Shown one piece after another: positions 18,615 to 33,900 of a DNA stretch of 64,000 bases. The stretch covers positions 153,521 to 217,520 of the forward strand of contig CAVUCH010000001.1 of the NCBI GenBank assembly GCA_963739995.1, given 5' to 3'. The notes under the pieces were generated by a model. It was not told where the DNA came from, searched no databases, and saw only the letters and a list, made by a program, of their open reading frames with translations. Numbering within the stretch: position 1 is the first letter of the stretch; each line of letters opens with the position of its first letter. Source of the stretch: Vicinamibacteria bacterium. GTDB lineage: Bacteria > Acidobacteriota > Vicinamibacteria > Vicinamibacterales > JAENWD01. The position numbers were made by a program, and so were the translations under genes.

Positions 18615-19802
18615 CTATCCCTCCCGTTCCGGTCGATTCATCCATTCCTGCAGCTGTTGATCCGACCAGCAGTTGATCACGCGCTCCGGGGTGAGCCGCG
18701 CGAGCCGCGCGTGGGCCACGGCCATGCGCGAGAAGAGCAGCTCCTCGGTCGCGTGCGCGTCGCTGTCGAGGGCGAAGAGGCAGCCCGCCTCGAGCGCCGC
18801 GGCCGCGAGAGTCCAGTCGATGTCCTGGCGGTCCGGATAGCCATCGAGCTCGATCGCGACACGGCGCTCGGCGGCGGCAGAGAAGACCTCGTGCCAATCG
18901 GCCGACACACCTGGGCGCACGTCGTAGCGGCGGCCGCGCGGATGCCCGAGGATGTCGACCCATGGGTGCGAGACCGCGGCGACCATGCGCGCGGTCTGGT
19001 CGGCGCGGCTGCGCAGGGCGGAGTGGGGCGACGCCACCACGAACTCGAAACGGCGGAGCTCGTGCGGCTCCATATCGATTCGGCCGTCGGCGCGGATGTT
19101 GGCCTCGATCCCCTTGAAGAGCCTGAACTGGCCCCGGCGCTGCCCGTTGAGCTCGTCGATGGCCGCGTGCTGGCGGGACACCGCTTCCATGCTCATTCCG
19201 CTCGCGATGGGCAAACCGTAGCCATGATCGGTGACGCCCGCGCACGTCTGCGCGAGCGCGAGTGATGCTTCGACGATCCGCTCCAGGGTCTGCCCGCCGT
19301 CACTCCATGTCGAGTGCATCTGGAAGTCGCCGCGGTAATCCGCCAGCGCGACGAGCCCGTGAGCCGGTGCCGCCAGCACGGCCTCCGCGGTCGCCTGACT
19401 GATGAAGTCGCCCCGCAGTGACCGGCGGGTCGCGATCGCCTCCGCCCGGCCACTCTCGTGGATGGCTCTCTCCACGGTTGGCGAGCGGCCCGCCTCCAGA
19501 TACTCGAGGATGACGCGCTCGCTCGAGGGCCCCACATACGGTATCTTGGGCAGTTTCGGACCGTTCCGGAGTGCTGACAGCGGTTGTGCCAGGCCCAGCA
19601 CTGCGTGCGCCGCGCGTTTGTACGCCAGGGCGCGGGGGCCGTCCTGGAGCGCCGCAAGGTCGAGCAACAGCCCCGCTATCGAGGCATTGACGTCGTCCTC
19701 GAGCGCAGGCGCACCACCCGTCGGCGTCGATGAGTTGAGAGGGCTATCCGAGGGCGCCCGGCGGGAGCGAGGGACGGCCGCGGCACGGCGCTTGGCGGTC
19801 AT
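18615..19802 (-). CDS. PolX-like N-terminal helical/HhH domain fused to a PHP domain, without polymerase core
   Basis: NASIAGLL..AYKRAA..KIPYVGPSS; GDFQMHSTWSDG, VTDH, GIEANI, ILGHPRGR, DSDAH. Confidence 0.82.
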   Translation of the reverse strand: MTAKRRAAAVPRSRRAPSDSPLNSSTPTGGAPALEDDVNASIAGLLLDLAALQDGPRALAYKRAAHAVLGLAQPLSALRNGPKLPKIPYVGPSSERVILEYLEAGRSPTVERAIHESGRAEAIATRRSLRGDFISQATAEAVLAAPAHGLVALADYRGDFQMHSTWSDGGQTLERIVEASLALAQTCAGVTDHGYGLPIASGMSMEAVSRQHAAIDELNGQRRGQFRLFKGIEANIRADGRIDMEPHELRRFEFVVASPHSALRSRADQTARMVAAVSHPWVDILGHPRGRRYDVRPGVSADWHEVFSAAAERRVAIELDGYPDRQDIDWTLAAAALEAGCLFALDSDAHATEELLFSRMAVAHARLARLTPERVINCWSDQQLQEWMNRPEREG

Positions 19803-19868
19803 CCACGCGCCTCGTGCAAAGGGGTCGCCCGCCTCGCCGGGCCGAGTGGAACAAAGGGTGCAAAGCAG

Positions 19869-22199
19869 TTGCCGGAGGTGGCTGTCCCTTTCACTCCCGG
19901 TGCTCCTGTGTCGAAGACTGTCGGCTATACGGTGGCCGTGGCGGCGACCGTCCTGATGGCTTTCATCAGGTGGGTGCTCGACCCATGGCTCCATGAGCAG
20001 GCGATCCTGCTGCCGTTTACGCTGGCCGTGGTTGCAGCGGCGGTCGTCGGCGGACTGGGTCCAGGGCTGGCAGCCGCGGTCCTGTCTATGCTCATCGGCG
20101 CGCTGGCCTTCTTCGAGCCGCGAGGGTCGCTGTCGGTGGCAAGCGTGCCGGACGTGCTGCACCTTACCGTCTTCGCCTGCGTGTCCCTCATCGTATGCCT
20201 GCTGAGCCACCGCCGCGAGCAGGCGCTGGCGCATGCGCTCCGGTTCGAACGCCATCTCGAGCAGTCCAACCACCGGCTTGACGTCGCACAGGAATGTGTC
20301 GACGCAGGCGTATGGGAGTGGGAGATCGAGCGCGACCGGGGCTACTGGTCGCCCGGGTTTCGCTTGCTGATTGGCGCGAGCGCCGATGTCCCGGCGAGCC
20401 TGGCCGCGTTCCTCGATCGGGTCCACCCGTCCGACCGCCCGCGCGTGCATGGCGATGTGCAGCGCGCACTGGATGAGGGCGATTTCCGGTCCGAGTATCG
20501 CGTGCTCCACGCGGAGCGCGGCGAGACATGGCTGCTCAGTGCAGGCCGCACGCTCCGTGACGCATCGGGGCGCCCGGTGCGGATCACGGGCGTGGCACTG
20601 GATATCACCGAGCGGAAGCGCAACGAACAGGAGCTGCGGGACAGCCGCGAGCAGTTCCGGGCGATCGCCGACACGATGCCGCACTTCGTCTGGAGCGGGC
20701 GGCCCGACGGTTACATCGACTACTACAACGAGCGGTGGTACCAGTACACCGGGATGCCGCGCACGCCGGACCAGGGGTGGCACTGGAAGCTCTATATCCA
20801 TTCAGACGACCTCGATCGCGTGGCAGCCGCCTGGGGACACTCGCTGGCCACTGGCGAGCCCTACGACGTGGAGTACCGCGTCCGGCGCGGGAGCGACGGC
20901 ACGTATCGCTGGTTCATGGCGCGGGCAATGCCGATCCGGGGCGATCGCGGGGAGATCACGCGCTGGTTCGGCACCTGCACCGATGTCGACGAACAGCGCC
21001 GGCTTGCCGAAGCGCGCGACGCGCTCCTCGCAGCGGAGCGGGCGGCTCGCGCCCAGATCGAGCGGGCCATGCGCCACCGCGACGAATTCGTCGCAACGCT
21101 CGCCCACGAGCTGCGCACCCCGCTCAACGCCATCCTCGGGTGGACACAGATGCTGCGGCGCCCGACGAGCGCCGAGGTGCTGGCCCGTGGCCTCGAGGTG
21201 ATTGAGAGGAACACACGGGCACAGGCGCAGGTGATCTCCGACCTGCTGGATATCGGCCACATCACGTCCGGGAAGATCCGCCTGGCGCGGAAGACGGTGA
21301 ACATGCTCGGCATCGTGAGGGCCGCCGTCTCCATCGTGCGTCCAGCGGCGGAGGCAAAAAGCGTGTCGATCGACGCCGCGTCCGAGCCCGGCGCGCTCGT
21401 CATTGGCGATGAGGCGCGGCTGCAGCAGGTGACCTGGAACCTCCTCAGCAACGCCGTCAAGTTCACACCTCCTGGCGGCACCATCACCGTGGTCGCACAG
21501 CGTGTGGACGACCGCGTGGAACTGCGGGTCGTCGATTCGGGCGAGGGCATCGCGCCAGAATTCCTGCCCTTCCTCTTCGATCGCTACCGGCAGGGTGACG
21601 CCAGCGCCACCCGCTCGTATGGCGGCCTCGGCCTCGGCCTGTCGATTGCGAAGCACATCGTGGAACTGCATGGCGGGACGATTGACGCGTTCAGCGCCGG
21701 GATCGGACGTGGCGCGACCTTCCTCGTGCGGCTGTCGCACGCGGAGCTCGATGATCGCACCGACGCCGGGCGGCACGCCGATGTGTCGCTTGCCGGCGCG
21801 CATGTGCTCGTGGTCGAAGACCAGCCCGACGGACGGGAACTGGTGTCGCGGATCATCACCGAGCGGGGCGGCCGGGTGTCCACCGCGGTCAGCGCGGCGG
21901 AGGCGATCGCCCAGTTCACGGAGGAGCCGCCCGATCTGGTCATCAGCGACATCGCCATGCCGAACATGAACGGCTACGAGTTGTTGACGCGTCTGCGTGC
22001 GCTCGAGGAGGGCCGCCGGGTGCCGGCCATCGCCCTTACGCCGTACGCGCGCGCGGAAGATCGGACGCGGTCGCTGCGTGCCGGCTACCAGGGGCACGTC
22101 CCGAAGCCGGTCGATCCTGCCGAGTTGCTGGCCACCGTCGCGAGCCTGCTGCAATTGGCGGAGCGGCCCGACGACACACCGAAAGGAGTAACGCAATGA
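19869..22199 (+). CDS. Hybrid sensor histidine kinase (DUF4118-like membrane domain, 2 PAS, HisKA, HATPase, REC)
   Basis: LAHELRTPLNAI, NLLSNAVKFT, DSGEGI, GGLGLGL, LVISDIAMP; start uncertain. Confidence 0.93.
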   Translation: MPEVAVPFTPGAPVSKTVGYTVAVAATVLMAFIRWVLDPWLHEQAILLPFTLAVVAAAVVGGLGPGLAAAVLSMLIGALAFFEPRGSLSVASVPDVLHLTVFACVSLIVCLLSHRREQALAHALRFERHLEQSNHRLDVAQECVDAGVWEWEIERDRGYWSPGFRLLIGASADVPASLAAFLDRVHPSDRPRVHGDVQRALDEGDFRSEYRVLHAERGETWLLSAGRTLRDASGRPVRITGVALDITERKRNEQELRDSREQFRAIADTMPHFVWSGRPDGYIDYYNERWYQYTGMPRTPDQGWHWKLYIHSDDLDRVAAAWGHSLATGEPYDVEYRVRRGSDGTYRWFMARAMPIRGDRGEITRWFGTCTDVDEQRRLAEARDALLAAERAARAQIERAMRHRDEFVATLAHELRTPLNAILGWTQMLRRPTSAEVLARGLEVIERNTRAQAQVISDLLDIGHITSGKIRLARKTVNMLGIVRAAVSIVRPAAEAKSVSIDAASEPGALVIGDEARLQQVTWNLLSNAVKFTPPGGTITVVAQRVDDRVELRVVDSGEGIAPEFLPFLFDRYRQGDASATRSYGGLGLGLSIAKHIVELHGGTIDAFSAGIGRGATFLVRLSHAELDDRTDAGRHADVSLAGAHVLVVEDQPDGRELVSRIITERGGRVSTAVSAAEAIAQFTEEPPDLVISDIAMPNMNGYELLTRLRALEEGRRVPAIALTPYARAEDRTRSLRAGYQGHVPKPVDPAELLATVASLLQLAERPDDTPKGVTQ

Positions 22200-22493
22200 G
22201 TAAGGGCCCGCCCGTTGTCGCCGTCTTCAACTCGAACGACGATACCGTCGAGTTGATCCGAACCTGAGTCGAGCGGGTCGGGATCGTCGTTGTCAGCGCC
22301 CCCCTCGATAACATCAAGCGGGACGGCTTCGGGTGCCGGCCGTCTTCACCACCACCAACGAACAGCACGTGCGGGAAAGCGTGCCGGCCCGGTGGACGTG
22401 CTCGAGATCGTGGGCAAGCCATACGACTTGGATCTCCTCCTCGATAAAGTCCAGGCCGTAACCGGCGTCGTGGGGGACACAATCGAGGGGTAG
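22196..22493 (+). pseudogene. Degraded receiver-like protein
   Basis: ATG overlaps the kinase stop; MSKGPPVVAVFNSNDDTVELIRT* then EIVGKPYDLDLLL in another frame; internal stop and apparent deletion. Confidence 0.55.
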
Positions 22494-22724
22494 CGCCGCC
22501 CGATCTGTATTGCTGCTGTGCTAGCGCAGGGCCCAGCCTGAGGATGCGGAATATTCGCGCCCGCGCGGGAAAGTTCGCGGCGCCGAGTTGGAAGTCCCTG
22601 CGAGCGGGTACGATACACCCGGAAAATCGACCGGAGGTCGCAGGCTCGACCGGAACATATCTTGCTGAAAAAGGCACAGGGCGTTTCGCTATCCGCTTGC
22701 AGCGGTTCATGTTCCCGCGTAACC

Positions 22725-22740
22725 TTGACATCAGTGTCAC
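22725..22740 (+). promoter_or_regulatory. TGACA-N4-TGTCA palindrome overlapping a TTGACA -35 box
   Basis: TTGACATCAGTGTCAC about 40 bp upstream of the heme-operon leader ORF. Confidence 0.5.
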
Positions 22741-22775
22741 CCGGCCCATCTGGCACACCACGCTTCGTCGCCCGC

Positions 22776-23318
22776 GTGACTGAGGTGTTCCGCTCCCGGA
22801 ATCGCCTTGCGCGCGGCGCACGTCTCGCCCTCTCGGCCTCAGTCGCCGTGTCGGCGCTGGCGCTGGTGATCTTTCATCTCGTCCTGTTCTGGGACCAGAT
22901 CATCAGCGGGCGTCTGCTCGACCCCGCAGTGGCGGTGCGATGGGGTATGAGCGCCCTGCTGCTGGTGGTCTTCACCGCGTTCCGCCGCGCGGGCGTGCCC
23001 CTGTTATGGGGCCGACGCGCGCTGGTGGTGTGGGTGCTCGTTGCGCTGCTGCACTGCGCCGCCGTGCCTGCCGGCGATGTCGAGGGGATCACCCGGGGTG
23101 GCGCGCAGGCGGCGGAAGTGGTCGTCGACCTGCGCATCGGTGGGGCCGCGGCGCTCCTGCTCGCCGCTTCCCTGATGTTGCTGTTTCTCCTGGGCGCGCG
23201 CGCCATGCCCGGTGCCGCCCGCGCGATGCGCGTGCGGTGGTCCGCGGTCTCCGGCGCCCACGCGCCAATCCTCAGCCTCCATCTCGCCTCGCGCGCGCCT
23301 CCTCCCGTGGCCGCCTGA
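22776..23318 (+). CDS. Membrane protein ending in RAPP (candidate arrest-peptide leader of the heme operon)
   Basis: About four hydrophobic segments with His in two (VIFHLVLFW, VALLHC); C-terminus HLASRAPPPVAA*; start uncertain. Confidence 0.7.
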   Translation: MTEVFRSRNRLARGARLALSASVAVSALALVIFHLVLFWDQIISGRLLDPAVAVRWGMSALLLVVFTAFRRAGVPLLWGRRALVVWVLVALLHCAAVPAGDVEGITRGGAQAAEVVVDLRIGGAAALLLAASLMLLFLLGARAMPGAARAMRVRWSAVSGAHAPILSLHLASRAPPPVAA

Positions 23319-23496
23319 TCGCGCGCGGCCGGCGGTATGCCCGGCCGCTCCTGCACCTCTGCCTGCAGCCGCAGGACGCGCACGTGCGATGCGCGAGGTG
23401 CCGTGCGGGACCTGGACGCCCGGCCGGCATGCCGGCACGCGCCCAGCTCGCACGAGGTGAGAAACCCGCGTCATGGGACGCTCGGCGAGGCTCGCA

Positions 23497-24784
23497 ATGA
23501 CCCTCTTCCTGCTCGGTGTCAACCATCGGACGGCGGCGCTCGAAGACCGCGAAGCGCTCGCGCTCTCGTCCGTCGAAGTGCTCGACATCCTCGAACGGCT
23601 CGCGCGCCGGGGCGTGCTGCGCGAGTCGCTGGTGCTCTCGACGTGCAATCGCACGGAAGTCTATGCGGTGGCTGCCGAGATCACCGCCGCGGAGCACGAG
23701 GTGCGGCACGCCGTCCAGCAGCTGCGCGGACGCGACCTGCTCGAGCCGGGGCCCCACCGGTACCTGCGGAGCGGGCCGGCGGTGGCCGCGCACCTGGTCC
23801 GCGTTGCGTGCGGGCTCGACTCGATGGTGCTCGGCGACGTGCAGATTCTCGGGCAGGTGAAGGACGCCTATGCACTGGCCCGTCAGGCGGGCACAGCGGG
23901 TGTGCTGCTCGACCGCCTGCTCGAAACGGCGCTGCACGCCGGGAAGCGCGCCCGCGCCGAAACGGCCATCGGGGCGGGGCACGTGTCGATGTCGTCATCG
24001 GCGGTCGCGGCGGCCGTCAACACCGTGGGCCTGCGGGGCCGCCGTGTGCTCGTCGTCGGGTGCGGGCGAGACCGCGCGGCTGGCCGCCCGACATGCGGCC
24101 GATCATGATCCTGCCGTCATCGTCGTGGCCAACCGCACCGTCGAACACGCACGGACCGTTGCTCGGGACGTGCGTGGCGAGGCCCTGCCGCTCAACTGCC
24201 TGACCGAGGCGCTCACCGCGGCCGACGTCGTGTTCTCGGCCACGAGCGCGCCAGGCACGGTGATCGCGGCCGACGTGGTGCGCGCGGCGATGGCGGTGCG
24301 TCCGGACCGTCCCCTGATGGTCCTCGACCTCGCGGTGCCCCGCGACGTCGACGCGGCCGCGGCCGACGTGGCCGGCGTGACGCTGCGCACGCTCGACACC
24401 ATTCGCGCGGCGGTCGATCACACGCTGTCGACCCGATCGGCCGAAGTGCCGCAGGTGGAAGCCATCGTTGCCGAGGAAAGCGAGCGCTTCAGCGGATGGA
24501 CGCGCAGCCTCGCGGCGACGCCCACGCTCGTGGCGCTGCGCGAGCATTTCGAGCGCATTCGCAACGAGGAGCTCGACCGCGTGCTGGGCCACGCCAGCGA
24601 CGAGGAACGGCAGCGCGCCGAACGGCTCACGCGCGTCCTCGTCAACCGTCTGCTGCACGTGCCGATGCTGCGGCTGAAGGAGACGGACGCGGCGTCGACC
24701 GACGGCCAGCTGCGGCTGCAGGCTGCGCGCGACCTGTTCGCGCTCGGCGTGTCGTTCGACGCCGGCCGGGGACACGATGCGTGA
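23497..24784 (+). CDS. hemA: Glutamyl-tRNA reductase (extra G near 24058-24060, probably a sequencing indel)
   Basis: GVNHRTA, LSTCNRTE, GLDSMVLG..QILGQVK; second frame GAGETARL, VANRT, SATSAP, DLAVPRDVD. Confidence 0.92.
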
Positions 24785-25742
24785 AGCGGCCAGCATCCGC
24801 GCCGGCACCCGCGCGAGCCGGCTCGCCTTGTGGCAGACGGAGCATGTGATCGCGCGGCTTGCGCAGGCCTGGCCGCAGCTGTCGTTCGAGCGCGTCCGCA
24901 TCCGGACGCTCGGAGATCGGATCACGGACGTGCCGCTGCCGCGAATCGGCGATCGCGGCCTCTTCACCCGCGAGCTCGAAGACGCCCTGCGCAGCCGGGT
25001 GATCGACTTCGCGGTGCACAGCCTGAAGGACCTGCCAACCGAACAGCCTGCCGGCCTCGCGCTCGGCGCAGTGCTCTCCCGCGAAGATCCCAGCGAGGTG
25101 CTCATTTCCCGGAGTCGCCGGCGGCTCGCCGATCTGCCTCCGGGCGCTCGCCTCGGCACGTCGTCATTGCGACGCCGCGCACAGGTGATGGCGCTCCGCC
25201 GGGATCTCGACATTGTCGACATCCGGGGCAACGTGCCCACACGCATCGAGAAGGTGCAGCGGGGTGAGTACGATGCCACGCTCCTCGCGCTCGCAGGCTT
25301 GCGGCGGCTGAAGCTGACGGATGCCGCGACCGAGGTGTTCGCGAGCGACGTGATGGTGCCGGCGCCGGGCCAGGGTGCGCTGGCGGTGCAGGTGCGGACG
25401 GACGACGAGCGCATCCTGCGGATCGTGACGGCTGTCGAGGACCTCGAGACCCGGCTCGCCACCGCGGCGGAGCGGCGCGTCCTGACCGCGCTCGAGGGTG
25501 GATGTCAGGCGCCAATCGGCGCGCTCGCGACGTGGACTGCACCAGGGCGCCTGCATCTCGTCGGAATCGTGGCGGGACTGGACGGCGTGCGTCTTCTGCG
25601 GGCCACGGGGGAGCGGCCGGTCGACAGCGAGCAGACGGCCTGCGCTCTGGGTATATCGGTGGCCGGTGCGCTCGCGGCCCAGGGCGCACGAGGCCTCATC
25701 CAGGACGCGCGGGCGCTGGCCGGCACGGGAGACCCGACGTGA
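24777..25742 (+). CDS. hemC: Hydroxymethylbilane synthase (porphobilinogen deaminase)
   Basis: GTRASRLALWQ, AVHSLKDLPT, GTSSLRR, RGNVPTR, LEGGCQAP. Confidence 0.96.
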   Translation: MREAASIRAGTRASRLALWQTEHVIARLAQAWPQLSFERVRIRTLGDRITDVPLPRIGDRGLFTRELEDALRSRVIDFAVHSLKDLPTEQPAGLALGAVLSREDPSEVLISRSRRRLADLPPGARLGTSSLRRRAQVMALRRDLDIVDIRGNVPTRIEKVQRGEYDATLLALAGLRRLKLTDAATEVFASDVMVPAPGQGALAVQVRTDDERILRIVTAVEDLETRLATAAERRVLTALEGGCQAPIGALATWTAPGRLHLVGIVAGLDGVRLLRATGERPVDSEQTACALGISVAGALAAQGARGLIQDARALAGTGDPT

Positions 25743-26548
25743 CCGCCTGGGAACGCCCGCTGGTCGTCGCCACGCGGGCAGAGAAGGCCGGCGACGGTTT
25801 TGCGCGGGTGCTGCGCGCAGCGGGTGTCCACGCCATCGCGATGCCGACCATCAGCATTGGTCCGCCGCAGGATCCTGGCGCGCTCACCGACGCGCTCGAA
25901 CGCCTGGCCTCCAGCCGGTGGATCGTGTTCACGAGCGCAGAGGCCGTCGCCGCCACGTGTACGCATCCAGGATGGGCGGAGGCGTGGCGCCGCCTCTTCG
26001 AACGGCCGCGGATCGCCGCCGTCGGTCCGGCGACCGCCGCGCGCGTGCGATCGTTCGGCCTGCCGTGCGATCTGGTGCCGGAGCGCTCGAGCGGGCGGGA
26101 CCTGGCAGCGGCCCTGGCGACATGTGACGGAAGCCTGGCGGGCGCACACGTGCTGTGGCCACGCTCGGATATCGCCGGCCGCGAGCTGCCGGATGCGCTG
26201 ACCGCCGCTGGCGCGGTGGTGATCGAGCCCGAGGCGTACTGCACTCGCACCGTGAAGCCGGACGCACTCGGCATCTTCACCGACATGCTCGAGGGGTGCG
26301 GCGTGGAGGCGGTGGCGTTTTTCTCGCCGTCGGCCGCCGATGGCCTCGCACGCGCGTTCGACGGAGGCAGCCGGATGGGGCTGGCACGGCTCGCCGGACG
26401 CACCGAGGTGGCGAGCATCGGACCGTCCACGTCGGCGGCGCTCGAGGCACTGGGGGCCCCGGTGACAATCGAGGCGAAAACGCGTTCAGGCTCGGAGCTC
26501 GCGAGCGCCATCCTGCGGCAGCTGGCGCGGCGGAAGGGCGCGGCATGA
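25739..26548 (+). CDS. hemD: Uroporphyrinogen-III synthase
   Basis: [37 protein letters not shown]; coupled between hemC and hemB. Confidence 0.88.
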
Positions 26549-27531
26549 GCTTTCCCGTCCACCGGCCACGCCGCCTCCGGCGCAGCGACGCACTGCGCGG
26601 CCTCGTTCGCGAGACGCGGCTCTCGCCCCAGCAGCTGATCGCGCCGCTGTTCGTGTGCGAGGGCGAGGGTGTGCGACGCGAGATCGTCTCGATGCCGGAC
26701 TGCTTTCACCTCAGCGTGGACACATTGGTCGAGGAATGCCGCGCGCTGGCCAGTCTTGGCGTAGCCGGGGTGATTCTCTTCGGCATCCCTGACGCGAAGC
26801 ATCCGGACGGCCGCGCCGCCCGCGATCCGGCAGGTCCCGTGGCCCGCGGTCTCGCAGCCGTTCGCGCCGCGGTGCCCGGGCTGTCTCTGTGGGCCGACGT
26901 CTGCCTGTGCGAGTACACCGATCATGGGCACTGCGGCCCCATTGCGACCGCCGCCGACGGGCTCGTGGAGGTGGACAACGACGCGACGCTGCCGCTGCTT
27001 GCCGCGGCGGCTGTCACCTACGCGGCCGCCGGCGCCGACGTGGTCGCGCCCTCCGACATGATGGACGGCCGGGTTGGTGCGATCCGGACCGCGCTCGATC
27101 GGGCCAGCCGCACCGACGTGGTCATCGTCTCGTATGCCGCCAAGTATGCGTCCGGCTTCTACGGCCCGTTCCGAGAGGCCGCTGGGTCGGCCCCGAGCTT
27201 CGGAGATCGCCGCGGCTACCAGATGGACCCGGCCAACGCGCTCGAAGCGCTGCGCGAGGTCGCGGCCGATCTGGGGGAGGGCGCCGACATCGTGATGGTG
27301 AAGCCGGCGCTCGCCTATCTGGACATTGTCTGGCGCGTGAAAGAGCGTTTCGGCGTGGCGGTCGCCGCGTACAACGTATCGGGCGAGTACGCGATGGTGA
27401 AGGCCGCCGGCGCCCGGGGCTGGCTCGACGAGCCGCGCGTGATAATGGAGTCGCTGCTCTCCATCCGGCGGGCGGGCGCCGACATCATCCTGACCTATTT
27501 CGCGAAAGAGGCTGCGCGGCTGCTCGCGTAG
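26545..27531 (+). CDS. hemB: Porphobilinogen synthase (Zn-dependent)
   Basis: [55 protein letters not shown]. Confidence 0.97.
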
Positions 27532-27543
27532 ACACGTCTCTCG

Positions 27544-28857
27544 ATGGCTTCAGAACTCCAGGCTGACACGACCGCCACGAGCGCCGCGCTGTTCGACCGC
27601 GCCCGCGAGCTGATGCCCGGCGGTGTCAACTCGCCCGTGCGCGCGTTCCGTGCGGTGGGCGGGGCGCCGCGCTTCATCGCGCGCGGAGCCGGCGCGCGCG
27701 TCTGGGACGTGGACGGGCACGAGCTCATCGACTTCATCGGGTCGTGGGGACCGATGATCCTCGGGCATGCGCATCCTGACGTCGTGGCCGCCGTCACGCG
27801 GCAGGCGCACGAGGGCACCGCCTTCGGCGCACCCACCGCGCTCGAAGTGCGCATGGCGGAGCGGCTGACGGCACTCGTGCCGTCGATCGAGATGGTCCGG
27901 ATGGTGAACTCCGGCACCGAGGCGACGATGGCCGCGCTGCGGGTGGCGCGGGGCGTCACCGGTCGTCCGGGGGTGATCAAGTTCGAGGGCTGCTATCACG
28001 GGCACGGCGACAGTTTCCTCGTCAAGGCCGGCTCCGGTGCCGCCACGTTCGGCACACCCGACAGCCCGGGCGTGACGGACGCGACGGCGCGCGATACTGT
28101 GACCGCGCGTTTCAACGATCTCGCGAGCGTGCGCGCCGCCTTCACCTCGCACCCGGGCGCGATCGCCGCCCTCATCGTCGAGCCGGTCGTCGGCAACATG
28201 GGCGTGGTCGCCCCCAGGCCGGGGTTCCTGGAGGGGCTCCGCGAGGTGTGCTCGGCGGAGGGCGCCCTGCTCATCTTCGACGAGGTCATGACGGGTTTTC
28301 GCGTGGCGCGCGGCGGCGCCCAGGAGCGTTATGGGATCCGGCCGGACCTGACCACCCTCGGCAAGATCGTGGGCGGGGGACTGCCGGTCGGCGCCTACGG
28401 CGGACGGCGCGACCTCATGCAGCAGGTGTCACCGGCGGGGCCGATCTACCAGGCAGGCACGATGTCCGGCAATCCGCTGTCGATGGCGGCGGGTCTCGCG
28501 ACGCTCGATGTCATTGCGGCCGATCCGCAGTTCTACGGACGCCTCGAGGGGATGGGGGCAGCGCTCGAGGATGGTTTGTCGGCGGCGGTGGACCGGATCG
28601 GCGCGCCGTGCACCATCGCGCGCGTCGGGTCGATGTGGACCCTGTTCTTCACGCGCGATCGTGTGGACGATTGGACCGGCGCCGCGCGCGCGGACGTCGC
28701 CCGGTACGCGGGGTTCTTCCAGGCGATGCTCGGGCGCGGGATCGTCCTGGCGCCTTCACAGTTCGAAGCGAATTTCATCTCCGCGGCGCACACGCAGGGC
28801 GACATCGAGACCACGATTGCCGCCGCCACCGCGGCTCTGGAGACCGCCGGTGTCTGA
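27544..28857 (+). CDS. hemL: Glutamate-1-semialdehyde 2,1-aminomutase
   Basis: MPGGVNSPVRAF, NSGTEATM, GCYHGHGD, FDEVMTGFR, LGKIVGGGLP. Confidence 0.97.
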   Translation: MASELQADTTATSAALFDRARELMPGGVNSPVRAFRAVGGAPRFIARGAGARVWDVDGHELIDFIGSWGPMILGHAHPDVVAAVTRQAHEGTAFGAPTALEVRMAERLTALVPSIEMVRMVNSGTEATMAALRVARGVTGRPGVIKFEGCYHGHGDSFLVKAGSGAATFGTPDSPGVTDATARDTVTARFNDLASVRAAFTSHPGAIAALIVEPVVGNMGVVAPRPGFLEGLREVCSAEGALLIFDEVMTGFRVARGGAQERYGIRPDLTTLGKIVGGGLPVGAYGGRRDLMQQVSPAGPIYQAGTMSGNPLSMAAGLATLDVIAADPQFYGRLEGMGAALEDGLSAAVDRIGAPCTIARVGSMWTLFFTRDRVDDWTGAARADVARYAGFFQAMLGRGIVLAPSQFEANFISAAHTQGDIETTIAAATAALETAGV

Positions 28858-29983
28858 GACGGAGGTCGGGCCGGCGATGCGCACGGCACCGCTCGCCGGT
28901 GAGGATGTGCTGTTCCTGCGGGCGTGCCGCCGCGAGCCCGTGGAACGGACGCCCGTTTGGATCATGCGGCAGGCCGGGCGCTACCTGCCGGAATACCGCG
29001 CGATCCGGGAGCGCCGCGACTTCCTCGAATGCTGTCGTACGCCGGAGCTGGCCGCCGAGATCACAATGCAACCGGTCACGAGGCTCGGAGTCGACGCGGC
29101 CATCCTGTTCTCCGATATCCTTGTCCCCCTCCCCGGGATGGGGGTGCACGTCGAGTTCAACCCGGCCCCACAGCTCGCGCATCCCATCCGCTGCGCGGCC
29201 GACGTGGCCTCGCTGCGTGTGCCGGACGCACGCGAGGCGACACCCTTCGTGCTGCAGGCGGTGCGCCTGGTCCGCGGTCAACTTGGCGGCCGCGTGCCGC
29301 TCATCGGGTTTGCCGGCGCGCCCTTCACCATGGCGACGTACCTCGTCGAGGGCGGCGGCTCGAAGTCGTTCGCCGCCATCAAGGGGCTCCTTTTCGGCGA
29401 TACGCGCACTGCGCACCTGCTGCTCGCGATCTGCGCCGACACGGTCGCATCCTACCTCTCTGAGCAGGTGAAGGCGGGGGCGCAGGCCGCCATGCTCTTC
29501 GACACGTGGGCCGGTCTGCTCGGGCCCGAAGACGTCGGCAGCTTCGTCCTGCCGTATGCCCGGCGCGTGCTCGAAGCGGTGGGACAAGCCGCGCAAGACA
29601 TCGGCGCCCGGGTGCCGCTCATCTACTACGCCGGCGATGCCGCCGGGTGGGTCGAGGCGTGTACCGAAACCGGCGCCGACGTCATCGGCCTCGACTGGCG
29701 GATCGGCCTCGACGCCGCGCGCGCGCGCGTCGGCACGGAGGTCGCGCTTCAGGGCAACCTCGATCCGACGATCCTGCTTGGATCGCGCAGCCTCATCCGG
29801 CAGCGCACGCGTGGCGTGCTCCGCGCCGCCCGGGGGTTGACCAGCGGCGACCTCGACGCGGCGCCGGGACCGGCCATCGGCCACATCTTCAATCTCGGGC
29901 ACGGAATCCTGCCGCAGACGCCGCCGGATCACGCCCGGCTGCTCGTAGACAGCGTGCGCGAGTTCTCGGAGATCACGTCATGA
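28850..29983 (+). CDS. hemE: Uroporphyrinogen decarboxylase
   Basis: PVWIMRQAGRYLPEY, DAAILFSDIL, IGFAGAPFT, QGNLDP, IFNLGHGI. Confidence 0.96.
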   Translation: MSETEVGPAMRTAPLAGEDVLFLRACRREPVERTPVWIMRQAGRYLPEYRAIRERRDFLECCRTPELAAEITMQPVTRLGVDAAILFSDILVPLPGMGVHVEFNPAPQLAHPIRCAADVASLRVPDAREATPFVLQAVRLVRGQLGGRVPLIGFAGAPFTMATYLVEGGGSKSFAAIKGLLFGDTRTAHLLLAICADTVASYLSEQVKAGAQAAMLFDTWAGLLGPEDVGSFVLPYARRVLEAVGQAAQDIGARVPLIYYAGDAAGWVEACTETGADVIGLDWRIGLDAARARVGTEVALQGNLDPTILLGSRSLIRQRTRGVLRAARGLTSGDLDAAPGPAIGHIFNLGHGILPQTPPDHARLLVDSVREFSEITS

Positions 29984-31422
29984 GCGATGCGCCGCTGCCG
30001 GTCTATCGTCGCTCGCCGACCGTGCCCGCGGGGCCGCCGTCGTTCGAATCGGCGCCGCTCGATCTGCTGCGGCGATACGACCGGCCGGGGCCGCGCTACA
30101 CGTCGTATCCCACGGCCGTCGAGTTCCACGACGGATTCCGCGAACGGGAGTATCGTGAGCGGCTGGCTGAGGCGACGCGAGCGGCGACCGACCCGCTGTC
30201 GCTGTACATCCACCTGCCGTTCTGCCGCGAGCGCTGCTCGTTCTGCGGGTGCATGGTCATCATCACGAAAAAGCACCAGGTTGCCGCGCGGTACCTCGAG
30301 TTCCTGGCGCGCGAGGTGGCCATGCTCGCCGACGCGCTCGGCGCCCGCCGGCAGGTGGTGCAGTACCACTGGGGCGGCGGAACACCGACGTATCTGACCC
30401 TCGAGGAAATGGAAGCCCTGCACAACACGGTAGCGCAGCACTTCGATGTGCAGCCGGGCGCGGAGGTCGCCATCGAAGTGGACCCGCGGGTCACCAGCCC
30501 GCAGCAGCTGGCGCTGCTGCGGCAGCTTGGCTTCAACCGGGTATCGTTCGGCGTGCAGGACTTCACTCCCGAAGTGCAGGAAGCCGTCAATCGCATTCAG
30601 CCCGAGGCGCTCACGCACCGCCTCTTCGACGATGCCCGCCGGCTCGGGTTCGACTCGATCAACATCGACTTGATTTACGGGTTGCCGCTGCAGACACGCC
30701 ACTCGTTCGGCCGCGCGGTCGACGCCGTCGTGGCGATGCGGCCGGATCGCGTGGCCGCGTATTCGTACGCGCACGTGCCGTGGATCCGCGGCAACCAGAA
30801 GCGGATCGACCCCGCAACGCTGCCGACGGGGGAGCGCAAGCTGGAGCTGTTCGGAGAAGTGATGGACCGGTTCCTGGCGGCCGGCTACGTGCAGATCGGC
30901 ATGGATCACTTCGCGCTGCCGCACGACGAGCTCGCCCGTGCGTCGGCGGCGCGGCGGCTCCATCGCAACTTCATGGGCTACACCACCAAGCCTGCGACCG
31001 ATATGGTCGGTCTCGGCGTCTCGGCCATCGGTGACGTCGCGGGCGCGTTCGTGCAGAACACGAAGAAGCTCTCCACGTACTACGCCGACCTGGAAGCTGG
31101 CCGGTTCCCCGTGGAACGCGGGTACCTGCTCGACGCCGACGATCGGCTCCGACGGGCGCTCATCACCGAGTTGATGTGCAACTTCCGCATCGAACCGCAG
31201 GCGCTCGACGCAAGGTTCGGCATCGTGTTCGACGACTACTTCGCCCGCGAGCTCGACGAGCTTGCGACCGGGCCCATGGCCGATGGCCTGATCACACGCC
31301 AGGGCGGCGCCTTCGAGGTGACGCCGGCCGGCCGGCTGCTGGTGCGGAACATCGCCATGATCTTCGATCGTCACCTGCGCGCGCGCACCACCGAGACGCC
31401 GGTCTTCTCGAGGACAATCTGA
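29980..31422 (+). CDS. hemN: Oxygen-independent coproporphyrinogen III oxidase (radical SAM)
   Basis: GPRYTSYPTA, YIHLPFCRERCSFCGC, WGGGTPT, GMDHFA, HRNFMGY, FSRTI. Confidence 0.95.
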   Translation: MSDAPLPVYRRSPTVPAGPPSFESAPLDLLRRYDRPGPRYTSYPTAVEFHDGFREREYRERLAEATRAATDPLSLYIHLPFCRERCSFCGCMVIITKKHQVAARYLEFLAREVAMLADALGARRQVVQYHWGGGTPTYLTLEEMEALHNTVAQHFDVQPGAEVAIEVDPRVTSPQQLALLRQLGFNRVSFGVQDFTPEVQEAVNRIQPEALTHRLFDDARRLGFDSINIDLIYGLPLQTRHSFGRAVDAVVAMRPDRVAAYSYAHVPWIRGNQKRIDPATLPTGERKLELFGEVMDRFLAAGYVQIGMDHFALPHDELARASAARRLHRNFMGYTTKPATDMVGLGVSAIGDVAGAFVQNTKKLSTYYADLEAGRFPVERGYLLDADDRLRRALITELMCNFRIEPQALDARFGIVFDDYFARELDELATGPMADGLITRQGGAFEVTPAGRLLVRNIAMIFDRHLRARTTETPVFSRTI

Positions 31423-31423
31423 C

Positions 31424-32488
31424 GTGCCGACTTCGACCGCGACGGGTGCGCCCATCGCCATCCTGCTGTTCAACCTTGGCGGACCCGGCACGCTCGCCGA
31501 CGTCAGGCCGTTTCTGATCAACCTCTTCTCCGATCGCGACATCATCGAGCTGCCGCTCGGCGCACTGCTCCAGCCGGTCGTGGCGCGCATCATCGCCGCA
31601 TCGCGCGGCCCGTCGGTGCGGGAGAACTACGCCCGCATCGGCGGCGGTTCGCCGCAGCTGCGACTCACCGGCGAGCAGGCCGCCGCTCTCGAAGCCCGCC
31701 TGAACCGTCAGGGCGGCCGCGTCCGCACGTTCATCGCCATGCGGTACTGGCAGCCGACGACGGAGCAGGCGCTCGAGGCGATGGCGGCCGAGGGCATCTC
31801 CCGGGTGGTGACGCTCACGCTTTTTCCTCACTACTCGCAGGCGACAACGGGGTCCTCCGAGAAGGAGCTCGCGCGGACGCTTGCGCTCCCGAAATGGCAG
31901 GGACGGTTCACCGTGACCGGCATCCGATCCTACCCGGACGATCCCTTGTATCTGGATGCGATGACGGACACGGTGCGGCGGGCGCTCGACGGGTTCCCGG
32001 CCGACGTGCGCGAGCAAGTCGTGCTGCTCTTCAGCGCGCACGGATTGCCGCAGAAATTCATCGACCGCGGCGATCCCTACATCGAGGAGACCGGCAAGAC
32101 CCGGCGCGGCATTCTCGAGCGGCTCAACGTGCCGAACCGCCACGTGCTGGGGTACCAGTCGCGAACCGGCCCGGTGAAGTGGATTGGACCGGGCACCGAG
32201 GAGAAGCTCGAGGAGCTGGGCAGGGAAGGCGTTCGCCACGTGCTTCTGATCCCGCTGTCGTTCGTGTCAGACCACATCGAGACGCTGTACGAGGTGGACA
32301 TGCTCTTCGCCGACGCGGCGAAGGCCGCGGGCATCACCGACTACCGGCGGCCTGAGGCGCTGAACACGCACCCGCTGTTCATCGAGTCGCTGGCGCGACA
32401 GGTCGAACGGCATCTCGGGGCGGCGGCCGGGGCCGCTGACCGCGTGCGTGCAGGCGCAGCGGCCAGCAGTGCTGGAGAGGCACGATGA
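31424..32488 (+). CDS. hemH: Ferrochelatase
   Basis: LLFNLGGP, GGGSP, AMRYW, FSAHGLP, GDPY, YQSR, FVSDHIETLYE. Confidence 0.96.
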   Translation: MPTSTATGAPIAILLFNLGGPGTLADVRPFLINLFSDRDIIELPLGALLQPVVARIIAASRGPSVRENYARIGGGSPQLRLTGEQAAALEARLNRQGGRVRTFIAMRYWQPTTEQALEAMAAEGISRVVTLTLFPHYSQATTGSSEKELARTLALPKWQGRFTVTGIRSYPDDPLYLDAMTDTVRRALDGFPADVREQVVLLFSAHGLPQKFIDRGDPYIEETGKTRRGILERLNVPNRHVLGYQSRTGPVKWIGPGTEEKLEELGREGVRHVLLIPLSFVSDHIETLYEVDMLFADAAKAAGITDYRRPEALNTHPLFIESLARQVERHLGAAAGAADRVRAGAAASSAGEAR

Positions 32489-33900
32489 TGTCGCGCGTGG
32501 TGATTGCCGGCGGTGGCATAGCCGGTCTGGCGACGGCGTTCGAGCTGACGCGGGACCGACAGGGCGAACTCGACGTGACGGTGCTCGAACGCGCCGCTCG
32601 ACCTGGTGGGAACCTGCGGAGCGAGCGGATCGACGGCTACCTGTGCGAGTGGGGCCCGAACGGGTTTCTCGATAACGTCCCCGAGACAATCGCGCTCGTC
32701 CGTGAGCTCGGGATTGCGGATCGCCTGCTGCCTGCCGACGCTGCGGCGAAGCGTCGGTTCATCTACAGCAACGGCCGTCTACACGAGCTGCCGGGCGGGC
32801 CTGTGGGCTTTGCCCTGACCCGCCTGCTGTCGTTCTCAGGCCGCATGCGCGTCATGGGGGAGCCCTTCGCGGCTCACCGCCCCGACACCGACGAGACGAT
32901 TCACGCGTTTGCCGCCCGCCGCATCGGGCTCGAGGCAGCCGACGTGCTCATCGATTCGATGGTGTCGGGCGTCTTTGCCGGGAACGCGCGCGAGCTCTCC
33001 CTTCGGGCGTGCTTTCCGAAGATGTGGGAGATGGAACGCGAGCACGGCAGCCTCGTGAAGGCGATGCTGGCGAAGCGGCGCGAGCGGCGGACGTCCTCGG
33101 GTGCGCCGATGGGTGCGCCTGGTGGTCACCTGACGTCGTTCACGGGAGGCATCGAGGATCTGGTACACGCGCTCGGCCGGGCGCTCGCTCCGCGCGTGAA
33201 GACCGGCTGTGCAGTGCGCCGTGTGCGGCCACGCACGCCGGGCAGTCCCGACGGGTGGGTGGTGGAGCTCGAGGACGGCCGGTCGTTCGAGGCCGACGCG
33301 GTGGTGCTCGCGGGCAGCGCCGCGAGCAGCGCCACGCTGGTGGAGGGTTTCGATGGAACCCTTGCGGCGGTGCTTCGACAGATCCCGACGGCGCCCCTGG
33401 CGGTCGTCTGTCTCGGGTACGAAACGGCACGCCTCGACCGCCCGCTCGACGGCTTCGGTTTTCTCGTCCCCCGTGGAGAAGGCATTGCCGTCCTCGGTGC
33501 GCTCTGGGATTCGAGCATCTACCCGGGGCGCGCGCCGGAAGGTCGTTCGCTGATCCGCGTGATGATTGGCGGCGCGCATGACGCATCCGCGGTGATGCTC
33601 GATGACGAGGTGCTCATCGATCGGGCGCGCGCGGACCTGGAGACCACGATCCGCCTCAACATCGAGCCGGTGTTCACGCGGGTCTTCAGGCATCCTGCGG
33701 GCATTCCGCAGTACACAGTGGGACACCTGGATCGGGTCGCGCGGATCGACGAGCGCATGAGGCAACACCATGGGCTGTTCCTCGCCGGGAACAGCTATCG
33801 AGGGGTGTCAATCAACGCGTGCATTGCCGACGCCCGACCGCTCGCCGCCGGGGTACGGGACGCGGCGGCGGCCGCGCGGCCGCTGACCGCACTGCAGTAG
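32485..33900 (+). CDS. hemY: Protoporphyrinogen oxidase (HemY-type flavoprotein)
   Basis: IAGGGIAGL dinucleotide fold, EWGPNGF, GFGFLVP, IPQYTVGH, GNSYRGVSINAC. Confidence 0.93.
   Translation: MMSRVVIAGGGIAGLATAFELTRDRQGELDVTVLERAARPGGNLRSERIDGYLCEWGPNGFLDNVPETIALVRELGIADRLLPADAAAKRRFIYSNGRLHELPGGPVGFALTRLLSFSGRMRVMGEPFAAHRPDTDETIHAFAARRIGLEAADVLIDSMVSGVFAGNARELSLRACFPKMWEMEREHGSLVKAMLAKRRERRTSSGAPMGAPGGHLTSFTGGIEDLVHALGRALAPRVKTGCAVRRVRPRTPGSPDGWVVELEDGRSFEADAVVLAGSAASSATLVEGFDGTLAAVLRQIPTAPLAVVCLGYETARLDRPLDGFGFLVPRGEGIAVLGALWDSSIYPGRAPEGRSLIRVMIGGAHDASAVMLDDEVLIDRARADLETTIRLNIEPVFTRVFRHPAGIPQYTVGHLDRVARIDERMRQHHGLFLAGNSYRGVSINACIADARPLAAGVRDAAAAARPLTALQ

Follow-up and report, generated by a model that had tools for sequence, protein, structure and literature searches.

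Arrest peptides such as SecM, MifM, VemP, ApdA, ApdP and ApcA combine a C-terminal arrest motif (RAGP or RAPP) with an N-terminal localisation signal; the force of translocation or membrane insertion frees the arrest, and the stalled ribosome unmasks a downstream Shine-Dalgarno (SD) sequence. The arrest peptides described so far respond to copper, to small metabolites, to antibiotics or to the activity of secretion or insertion. In a 64,000-nt stretch of a Vicinamibacteria bacterium genome (phylum Acidobacteriota; contig CAVUCH010000001.1, positions 153,521 to 217,520; hereafter the window), the gene directly upstream of a haem biosynthesis operon encodes a small membrane protein with the C-terminal end SRAPPPVAA, and a reading made from the letters of the DNA (the sequence-only reading) had proposed it as a haem-sensing, ribosome-stalling leader of hemA. 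We compared this leader and its homologues with the described systems. On balance, the gene is probably an RxPP arrest-peptide leader like CruR, CutF and SecM that has an unrelated membrane sensor of the bis-His type and controls haem supply.

CruR of Bordetella pertussis (Bp2923, the upstream open reading frame of bfrG) is a small first gene with RAPP three residues before the stop, followed by a GC-rich spacer of ~160 nt and a same-strand target, a TonB-dependent receptor; a conserved ligand-binding motif lies at a fixed distance from RAPP in the nascent chain and is required for downstream expression (PMC9426467). CutF of Rhodobacter capsulatus, a DUF2946 protein, is the leader of cutO; it responds to copper, which is sensed in the periplasm during secretion, and elongation factor P is involved. 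Seven RAPP or RGPP proteins of Streptomyces lividans arrest translation in vitro and in vivo, and four of them have four predicted transmembrane (TM) segments (Fujiwara et al., EMBO J 2025, PMC12992588). According to the same report, the Arg is irreplaceable in ApcA, ApdA and ApdP; in RAPP-type arrest the exchange of Ala for Gly is fully permissive and that for Pro, Ser or Asp partly so, with ApdP A132P near wild type in Bacillus subtilis; and random-library stalling screens yielded RxPP with x = G, A, S or P. RAPP-like motifs are depleted in proteomes and concentrated towards the C-terminal ends of small proteins that are secreted or membrane-bound, whose downstream genes are diverse and include TonB-dependent receptors, and the toeprint of CruR placed the third codon of the motif in the ribosomal P site and the fourth in the A site (PMC12992588).

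The open reading frame (ORF) of the leader has a G+C content of 0.78/0.54/0.85 at codon positions 1/2/3, compared with 0.79/0.52/0.86 for hemA; its longest version would start with TTG at 22662. The positions of the ORF, the RAPP codons, both His codons, the stem behind the stop and the 178-nt spacer in the sequence-only reading were all correct on re-reading (Table 1), and its description of a four-TM protein of ~180 aa agreed with the AlphaFold2 helices and hydropathy. The protein had no match in Pfam (E ≤ 0.01) or NCBIfam. A word-indexed search returned 67 homologous clusters at 90% clustering, all unnamed save one evident misannotation, and a HMMER profile search with E ≤ 1e-3 returned 644 clusters at 50% identity, of which 550 reached E ≤ 1e-10; nearly all were 150-200 aa long and matched up to their final residues. 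Members of ~155-200 aa were found in many soil Acidobacteriota, namely in 51 of the 201 genomes sampled from the window's order, where they were concentrated in a few subgroups (16/17 genomes of f1, 12/17 of f3, 10/17 of f2 and 8/17 of f6), and in 20 of the 401 sampled from the phylum, five of them outside that order. The leader is a genuine and widespread gene, and it appears to be the founding example of an unnamed family of four-TM membrane proteins in Acidobacteriota. A separate locus search with a 39-sequence alignment gave nine loci, eight of them titled Vicinamibacteria, Vicinamibacterales, Acidobacteriota or generic uncultured bacterium and one Bifidobacteriaceae. The last (L054, an 'uncultured Bifidobacteriaceae' metagenome-assembled genome) carries an Acidobacteriota-type leader-hemA locus that is the same as L005 (match 364-585), and the bin is probably mislabelled or contaminated.

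Only seven columns were invariant among 56 aligned homologues with identity down to 26%: H34, W56, W86, H93, R173, P175 and P176. The 39-sequence alignment agreed with these invariants, with His93 present in 39/39. Both His residues and the terminal R-x-P-P, whose conservation the sequence-only reading had predicted, are thus within this small set. The spacing between H34 and H93 was 59 residues in 50/56 members, and the distance from His93 to the Arg was 74-83 residues in 55/56, with a linker whose sequence is itself free to drift. The tail behind the motif measured 1-5 residues in 50/56; in the window RAPP occupies residues 173-176 of 180. The core was RAPP in 29, RPPP in 26 and RGPP in one of the 56 members. 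Among the best 150 cluster representatives, 147 carried R[AGP]PP no further than 20 aa from the end (112 RPPP, 31 RAPP and 4 RGPP), and the x position was exclusively A, G or P, the three exceptions being truncated or read-through products. The residues found at x include the documented permissive G and P, and the likewise partly permissive Ser and Asp never occurred. All five loci examined from other orders or classes of the phylum kept both His residues and ended in ARPPPA, SRPPPAYS, PRAPPA, PRPPPSRPAALALA and GRAPPALSSS. The codons varied for the Arg (CGC, CGG, CGT, CGA and AGG) as well as for x and the prolines, which indicates that selection acts at the peptide level.

The motif exceeds chance expectation. 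Among 3601 ORFs of the genome that were crudely classed as coding-like, RAPP was found 14 times and RGPP 4 times, versus 122 for AAPP, 39 for AGPP, 58 for PPAR and 86 for RAPA as controls; several of the other RAPP matches sit in probably spurious N-terminal extensions, and the leader was the sole ORF of the set with RAPP within ~10 residues of the C-terminus. This scarcity parallels the published proteome depletion. The leader has three hallmarks of arrest peptides: a near-C-terminal RxPP core, a small TM protein, and a same-strand gene after a short spacer. Elsewhere in the same genome, a coding-like ORF of 101 aa (contig C25, 50863-51168, + strand) ends in SARSPPADLQ; its RSPP stands four residues ahead of the stop and is, as a core, partly permissive for arrest (PMC12992588), so this ORF may be a further leader candidate.

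The context of the homologues was determined in two samples. With 1.5-kb flanks, hemA was found downstream of the leader in 22 of 30 loci from the order: at 122-187 nt in 17 of them, and at ~0.9-1.06 kb in the other five. Three of these five were scanned (L013:2117-2938, L017:557-1378 and L021:470-1288), and each had a membrane gene of the Cytochrom_C_asm type (HemX/CcsB-like) between leader and hemA, as did L073 from another order (L073:5219-6031). The hem order in Bacillus is hemAXCDBL, and the position of the HemX-like gene between leader and hemA differs from it. The second sample comprised 20 loci with 8-kb flanks, namely seven of the eight loci lacking hemA and 13 more from the match list. 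No hem gene was found within 8 kb in any of the 20, and all 20 had a same-strand ORF of 724-1034 aa after the leader, directly in 18 (spacer ~55-165 nt) and behind a membrane ORF of ~260-330 aa in the remaining two. The seven large ORFs scanned in Pfam were all TonB-dependent receptors (CarboxypepD_reg, Plug and beta-barrel domains). In NCBIfam all seven receptors scanned, four of them from other classes, matched best the haem/haemoglobin models TIGR01785/TIGR01786, with E values of 1e-52 to 1e-74, compared with 1e-21 to 1e-40 for a siderophore model and 1e-9 to 1e-18 for a copper-receptor model; since the scores were under the curated cut-offs, the receptors are haem-type by best resemblance and not by curated membership. 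In all loci examined, including those from other Acidobacteriota classes, the leader lies upstream and on the same strand of hemA (or its operon) or of a haem-type TonB-dependent receptor, and the earlier expectation that homologues would precede haem genes held in both context classes.

Core type and context were not strictly linked: a receptor follows a RAPP leader in L075 and L077, and hem genes follow an RPPP leader in L013, L018, L020, L021, L023 and L073. Two copies of the family are present in each of the genomes G100 and G190, and in G100 one copy is hem-linked and the other receptor-linked. On a maximum-likelihood tree of 45 members, made without L004 (frameshifted) and L045 (stop inside the match), the context labels needed 6 changes versus a mean of 18.2 after shuffling; the tree shows clustering by context, and its unresolved backbone does not give the order of events. 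In L075 the receptor is followed by ccmA (137 bits, cut-off 131.6) and ccmB- and ccmC-like genes (L075:331-2403), which serve haem export for cytochrome c maturation. The haem-type receptor is also accompanied, behind it or between leader and receptor, by a multi-TM protein with a conserved core of ~225-260 aa and the motif HYIP(I/V)LTT near its N-terminus (L043:6596-7270, L046:6243-6953, L038:3557-4336, L051:3414-4415, where the ORF call is longer at 333 aa, and L075:5231-5965). The four copies scanned (L043, L038, L046 and L075) had no Pfam or NCBIfam match, and the protein may be an inner-membrane partner for haem uptake.

The leader could instead be an ordinary haem-handling membrane protein, such as a small b-type cytochrome, a haem chaperone or a transport accessory, that merely shares the operon, carries its R-x-P-P tail for a role such as docking or turnover and pauses ribosomes at most incidentally; we consider that explanation unlikely. 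The TM core with its invariant His and Trp residues is well conserved, beyond the needs of a pure upstream ORF; the gene has its own coding bias and a post-stop hairpin, possibly its own terminator; and two of the 56 members gave a weak Pfam match to the haem-binding Ferric_reduct TM domain (best E 0.0036). However, RAPP and RGPP are counter-selected in the proteome, the leader being the only C-terminal case, and x is limited to A, G and P, of which Gly preserves arrest fully and Pro in part, although Ser and Asp, which never occur here, also preserve it in part. The surroundings of the motif drift while its distances to the stop and to the fourth TM helix (TM4) hold, and the leader always comes first, on the same strand, 58-190 nt ahead of two operon types. 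Conserved four-TM domains are also found in verified arrest peptides (PMC12992588).

With CruR the locus shares a small first gene with RAPP close to the stop, a GC-rich spacer before a same-strand target, and a conserved candidate ligand-binding motif at a near-fixed distance from the arrest motif. Unlike CruR, an exported member of DUF2946 that has a signal peptide and CXXC and senses copper, the protein studied here has four TM helices, two TM His residues and no Cys motif; most family members end in RPPP, the targets are haem synthesis genes or haem-type receptors, and no Rho-type region with C over G is evident. The kinship with DUF2946-type leaders suggested earlier was not borne out: none of the 56 members matched DUF2946 in Pfam at E ≤ 1, Cys was absent from the invariant and nearly invariant columns of both alignments with no CXXC, and the protein is polytopic rather than exported, so that DUF2946 membership is excluded. 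The RNA logic proposed below for the leader 3' end and the hemA SD resembles that of CutF, which differs in its copper ligand, in periplasmic sensing during secretion with elongation factor P, and in its protein family; the pairing in the present locus is predicted only and is not robust to shuffle controls. SLIV_18480, SLIV_27375, SLIV_33595 as well as SLIV_33605 of S. lividans are likewise small four-TM proteins with a C-terminal RAPP or RGPP and conserved TM His or Cys residues, encoded upstream of non-Sec genes and with arrest verified in vitro and in vivo (PMC12992588). They belong to another phylum, their downstream genes are metal-related or encode thioredoxin or an extracytoplasmic function sigma factor, and the likeness to the present family is one of described features. 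SecM-type monitors precede genes of the Sec or YidC machinery, and here the downstream genes are the hemA operon or TonB-dependent receptors; the reading as a Sec/YidC monitor was rejected on this ground.

Haem synthesis in bacteria is known to be controlled by haem-dependent proteolysis of HemA, by HemX in Bacillus and by Irr in rhizobia. These controls act by proteolysis, protein partners or transcription, and to our knowledge none is a nascent-chain arrest device. The present system would share with them the HemA level as a target and presumably a haem signal, and in some relatives a HemX-like gene lies between leader and hemA. The sequence-only reading had regarded such a device as new for tetrapyrrole synthesis, and a literature search likewise found no description of one. 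No paper linking an arrest peptide to haem was found in full text (the supplements of PMC12992588, which possibly list downstream gene classes, were not covered), and the main text of PMC12992588, its supplements again aside, does not mention haem, porphyrin, iron, glutamyl-tRNA or RPPP. Compared with the known RxPP leaders, the sensor domain differs, the core is mostly RPPP and the targets are new.

The structure of the leader was predicted with AlphaFold2 from the 56-sequence alignment, with a mean predicted local distance difference test (pLDDT) score of 71 and a predicted template modelling (pTM) score of 0.42. Helices were placed at residues 2-44, 50-71, 80-95, 114-143 and 146-158, followed by a coil tail (159-180). 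By the positive-inside rule, the N-terminus, the RRAGVPLLWGRRA loop and the C-terminal tail would be cytoplasmic (N-in/C-in). By this topology, the periplasmic ends of TM1 and TM3 would be 5-6 residues above His34 and His93, which would share the depth of Trp56 in TM2, a predicted arrangement typical of a bis-His b-haem site. The end of TM4 is ~30 residues before Arg173 (22-33 residues in 48/56 members by a crude hydropathy rule), so that TM4 would be just emerging from the ribosome at the presumed stall. The same geometry lets membrane insertion pull the nascent chain in SecM- and MifM-type systems. Foldseek found no structural relative of the leader in the PDB, a wide VIA-align search gave only single long-helix matches (Z 5.2-5.8), and a sequence-profile search of the PDB gave one irrelevant match (E 0.066). 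None of the 56 members matched the cytochrome b561/Ni_hydr_CYTB or HemJ families, and the identity of the leader as HemJ or HemX was ruled out by the lack of a Pfam match.

It is possible, and we put it forward tentatively, that haem itself is sensed through the two His residues. A signal other than haem, namely iron or another metal on the His pair, membrane-insertion capacity, the redox state or the proton motive force, would also suit an arrest leader, and we judge it less probable still. Copper is the ligand of CruR, CutF and SLIV_18480; the known RxPP leaders in front of TonB-dependent receptors sense copper (PMC9426467), His-rich four-TM arrest peptides have been proposed as metal sensors (PMC12992588), and TM4 of the leader is at a force-sensitive distance from the stall site. 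Yet neither Cys nor Met is among the invariant residues of the 56 sequences, only the two His; the receptors score best on haem-type models and far less well on the copper-receptor model; HemX-like and ccm genes occur in the loci; and no Sec or YidC gene was found downstream. Haem is favoured over iron because both operon types serve haem supply with the same expected sign (less expression under haem abundance): a single sensor acting in one direction would suit both, whereas iron would need opposite signs.

We infer stalling, haem binding and the RNA mechanism from these features, and the following course is proposed for the arrest leader. The ribosome would come to a halt when the PP prolines occupy the P site (first Pro) and the A site (second Pro), as in ApdA, ApdP and CruR; in the window these two residues are expected, by analogy, to be Pro175 (23298-23300) and Pro176 (23301-23303). 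The end of TM4 would then be ~30 residues from the peptidyl-transferase centre and leaving the tunnel, and insertion or packing of the helix bundle could pull on the chain. The two His residues, placed equally deep in TM1 and TM3 and close to the periplasmic face, would bind b-type haem or a precursor, and ligand-dependent folding would alter the duration of the stall. The stalled ribosome would cover the C-rich leader 3' end that otherwise pairs with the downstream SD and would also stand just upstream of the post-stop hairpin, so that stall duration could set translation and/or transcriptional read-through of the haem genes. In the simplest logic for both contexts, haem sufficiency would shorten the stall, and synthesis and uptake would be turned down. 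Taken whole, as co-translational bis-His binding of haem by a nascent four-helix bundle that tunes RxPP arrest, with product feedback on the hemA operon and on TonB import across the Acidobacteriota, this scheme is a conjecture to which we give somewhat less than an even chance.

Transcription across the locus was assessed from soil metatranscriptome contigs of two studies (X15 and X16; 90-100% identical), which, as contigs and not reads, report presence across the leader-hemA junction and not levels. The contigs cover the leader (22750-22924, 23121-23281 and 23254-23365), the spacer (23341-23501) and parts of hemA, and X15 records 12 and 13 together span 23254-23501; one contig joins 23365 to 23448 and represents a relative with a spacer shorter by 82 nt. 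X15 record 10 starts at 22751 and X16 record 17 at 22750, and the DNA contig X5 record 20 continues through this point. This is a weak hint of a transcription start at ~22750, 29 nt after TTGACA and 26 nt before the GTG at 22776. A consensus promoter scan of 22150-23560 found no sigma-70-type site; it missed TTGACA because a -10-like hexamer does not follow. The two terminator-like matches of the scan lie within or upstream of the ORF and not at the post-stop stem.

A GC-rich hairpin follows the stop. The first 50 nt behind the stop had a mean folding z of -1.77 in 14 hem-linked loci without duplicates; all 14 values were negative, and seven were matched by at most 5 of 100 shuffles, while a control segment 60-110 nt downstream gave a mean z of -0.07. 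A T-run stands behind the hairpin in L014 (CTTTTTT), L024 and L009. In the fold of 23280-23515, whose overall stability is not significant (z -0.95), GCCUCGC at 23286-23292 (codons A171-R173) is predicted to pair with GCGAGGC at 23484-23490, and 23303-23311 with ~23470-23478; a ribosome stalled on RAPP would cover 23286-23311. The P-site Pro codon was CCT in 20/41 loci and the A-site codon in 10/41, compared with 34/354 for the other Pro codons of the same leaders, and the preference at the P site creates an anti-SD-like CCUCC. When 35 loci were folded with 90 nt of upstream context, the 27-nt stalled footprint was the top partner of the SD in 15 (chance ~0.8), the window's locus not among them; with 45 nt of context and a 15-nt segment, 14/35 ranked first, several with little pairing mass; and when the fold began at the footprint edge, 26/35 ranked first, the window included (9.6 of 13 nt). 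Masking of the SD by the Pro-codon region is physically plausible in these models, and given the CCT bias it is perhaps selected for. Since the three designs disagree for the window's locus and composition explains most of the signal, the pairing is kept as a hypothesis.

The hairpin also suits transcription attenuation with the opposite sign, which we regard as improbable to about the same degree as the two alternatives above. The hairpin would be an intrinsic or partial terminator: a ribosome at the stop (3-8 nt before the stem) would block it and allow read-through, whereas a ribosome at RxPP (>20 nt upstream) would let it form, so that stalling switches the operon off and the ligand promotes stalling, as copper does for CutF. 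Consistent with this, the hairpin starts -3 to +17 nt from the stop in the hem-linked loci of family f1, where the folding signal and the T-runs described above are found, and in the window 23-27 nt separate the P-site codon from the stem. However, the window hairpin has no U-run and is not significant, a hairpin is no feature of receptor-linked loci, the RNA contigs (which do not show levels) continue from the leader 3' end through the hairpin into the spacer, and the composition profile showed no C-over-G skew that would suggest a Rho site. The stall may thus turn expression on by unmasking the SD or off by letting a terminator form. Finally, that the ORF is a chance open frame and its RAPP a compositional accident has next to no probability: long spurious ORFs are plentiful in this DNA of ~70% G+C (85 overlapping ORFs of at least 60 aa within 20-34 kb), but the coding-like GC pattern by codon position, homologues in the hundreds that keep conserved residues but vary in synonymous codons, and the scarcity of RAPP in the genome refute it.

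Several points weigh against the reading as a haem-responsive arrest leader. AlphaFold2 confidence is only moderate, and the two His residues could bind a metal instead, especially in an oligomer. The haem-model scores of the receptors, 176-251 bits, compare with curated cut-offs of 317-324 bits. The 8-bp GC stem of the sequence-only reading is present and recurs in hem-linked relatives, but it is not significant in this locus, where the hairpin (23316-23360) has a dG of -20.8 kcal/mol and a z of -1.1, with 31 of 200 dinucleotide shuffles as stable; receptor-linked loci showed no hairpin signal (mean z -0.54 after the stop versus -0.46 in the control), and the hairpin could be the leader's own terminator. 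The pairing of leader and SD in the window is lost with 45-90 nt of upstream coding RNA (pairing mass 0.03 and 0.01). Shuffled footprints pair nearly equally (mean 3.85 vs 4.94; 10/35 loci beat at least 27 of 30 shuffles), so that much of the signal reflects C-rich Pro codons meeting G-rich SDs, together with an end effect; the pairing counts include the near-duplicate loci L004, L007 and L011, and related loci in general do not count as independent. DNA carry-over may contribute to the RNA contigs, which may also stem from close relatives and not from this strain. As a whole, the earlier proposal did well in its predictions on conservation and context, which all held, and its functional core (the stall, haem binding by the two His residues and the dependence of hemA on the leader) stands as a proposal.

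Table 1. Positions in the window of the leader, its conserved and predicted elements, and the haem operon
Feature	Position	Strand	Basis or remark
Possible -35 box TTGACA of leader promoter	22716-22721	+	Sequence; RNA contigs start ~29 nt downstream
Leader gene, 180 aa, four predicted TM helices	22776..23318	+	Codon-position GC, homologues, AlphaFold2 helices; GTG start 22776, 180 codons, TGA stop 23316-23318
His34 codon (VIFHLVLFW, TM1)	22875-22877	+	Invariant 56/56
His93 codon (VALLHC, TM3)	23052-23054	+	Invariant 56/56; predicted depth like His34
Leader 3' end, predicted pairing with hemA initiation region	23286..23311	+	Minimum free energy and centroid structures of 23280-23515
R173-A-P-P176 codons CGC GCG CCT CCT	23292-23303	+	R173, P175 and P176 invariant
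Leader-hemA spacer	23319-23496	+	178 nt, given hemA start ATG 23497
GC-rich hairpin directly after stop	23321..23354	+	Inner stem GCGGCCGG 23325-23332 / CCGGCCGC 23341-23348; no U-run
hemA SD region GCGAGGC	23484-23490	+	6 nt before ATG 23497
Haem biosynthesis operon	23497..33900	+	Pfam
hemA	ATG 23497 to 24784	+	Pfam GlutR; GlutR_N match begins at LGVNH motif just after ATG
hemC	24777-25742	+	Pfam Porphobil_deam
hemD	to 26548	+	Pfam HEM4
hemB	to 27531	+	Pfam ALAD
hemL	27544-28857	+	Pfam Aminotran_3
hemE	to 29983	+	Pfam URO-D
hemN-like gene	to 31422	+	Pfam radical-SAM/HemN_C
hemH	31424-32488	+	Pfam ferrochelatase
hemY	32485-33900	+	Pfam amine-oxidase-type

One extra base at ~24061 (24057-24061), inside the NAD-binding motif VLVVG|AGETARL, breaks hemA of the assembly into two frames (23473/23497-24108 and 23870-24784). 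Because hemA is intact in the relatives L003, L004, L006, L008 and L014, and near-identical contigs of two DNA runs from different studies (X1 and X5) are without the extra base, the split is probably an assembly error or a strain-specific lesion and not a property of the lineage. Upstream of the leader, long overlapping ORFs (18615-20801 and 20802-22196 on the - strand, 19869-22199 on the + strand) had a weak HHH_8 match as their sole match, and no coding signature was seen in the ~300 nt ahead of the leader (roughly 22460-22760).

The toxicity of free haem and of porphyrins is the reason for the tight control of haem synthesis. If the proposed mechanism is true, membrane haem sensing by a nascent chain coupled to a ribosome stall would give tetrapyrrole metabolism a new layer of control; the leader would then be the first arrest peptide to sense a tetrapyrrole and would add a new ligand class for such peptides. 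The predominance of RPPP, in 112 of the best 150 clusters, suggests that nature may often use it as an arrest core. The published proteome screen seems to have been limited to RAPP/RGPP ORFs (PMC12992588), and screens keyed on these two motifs would largely miss the members of this family. The occurrence of the same module before synthesis genes and before uptake genes would provide a natural experiment on the rewiring of a sensor between operons.

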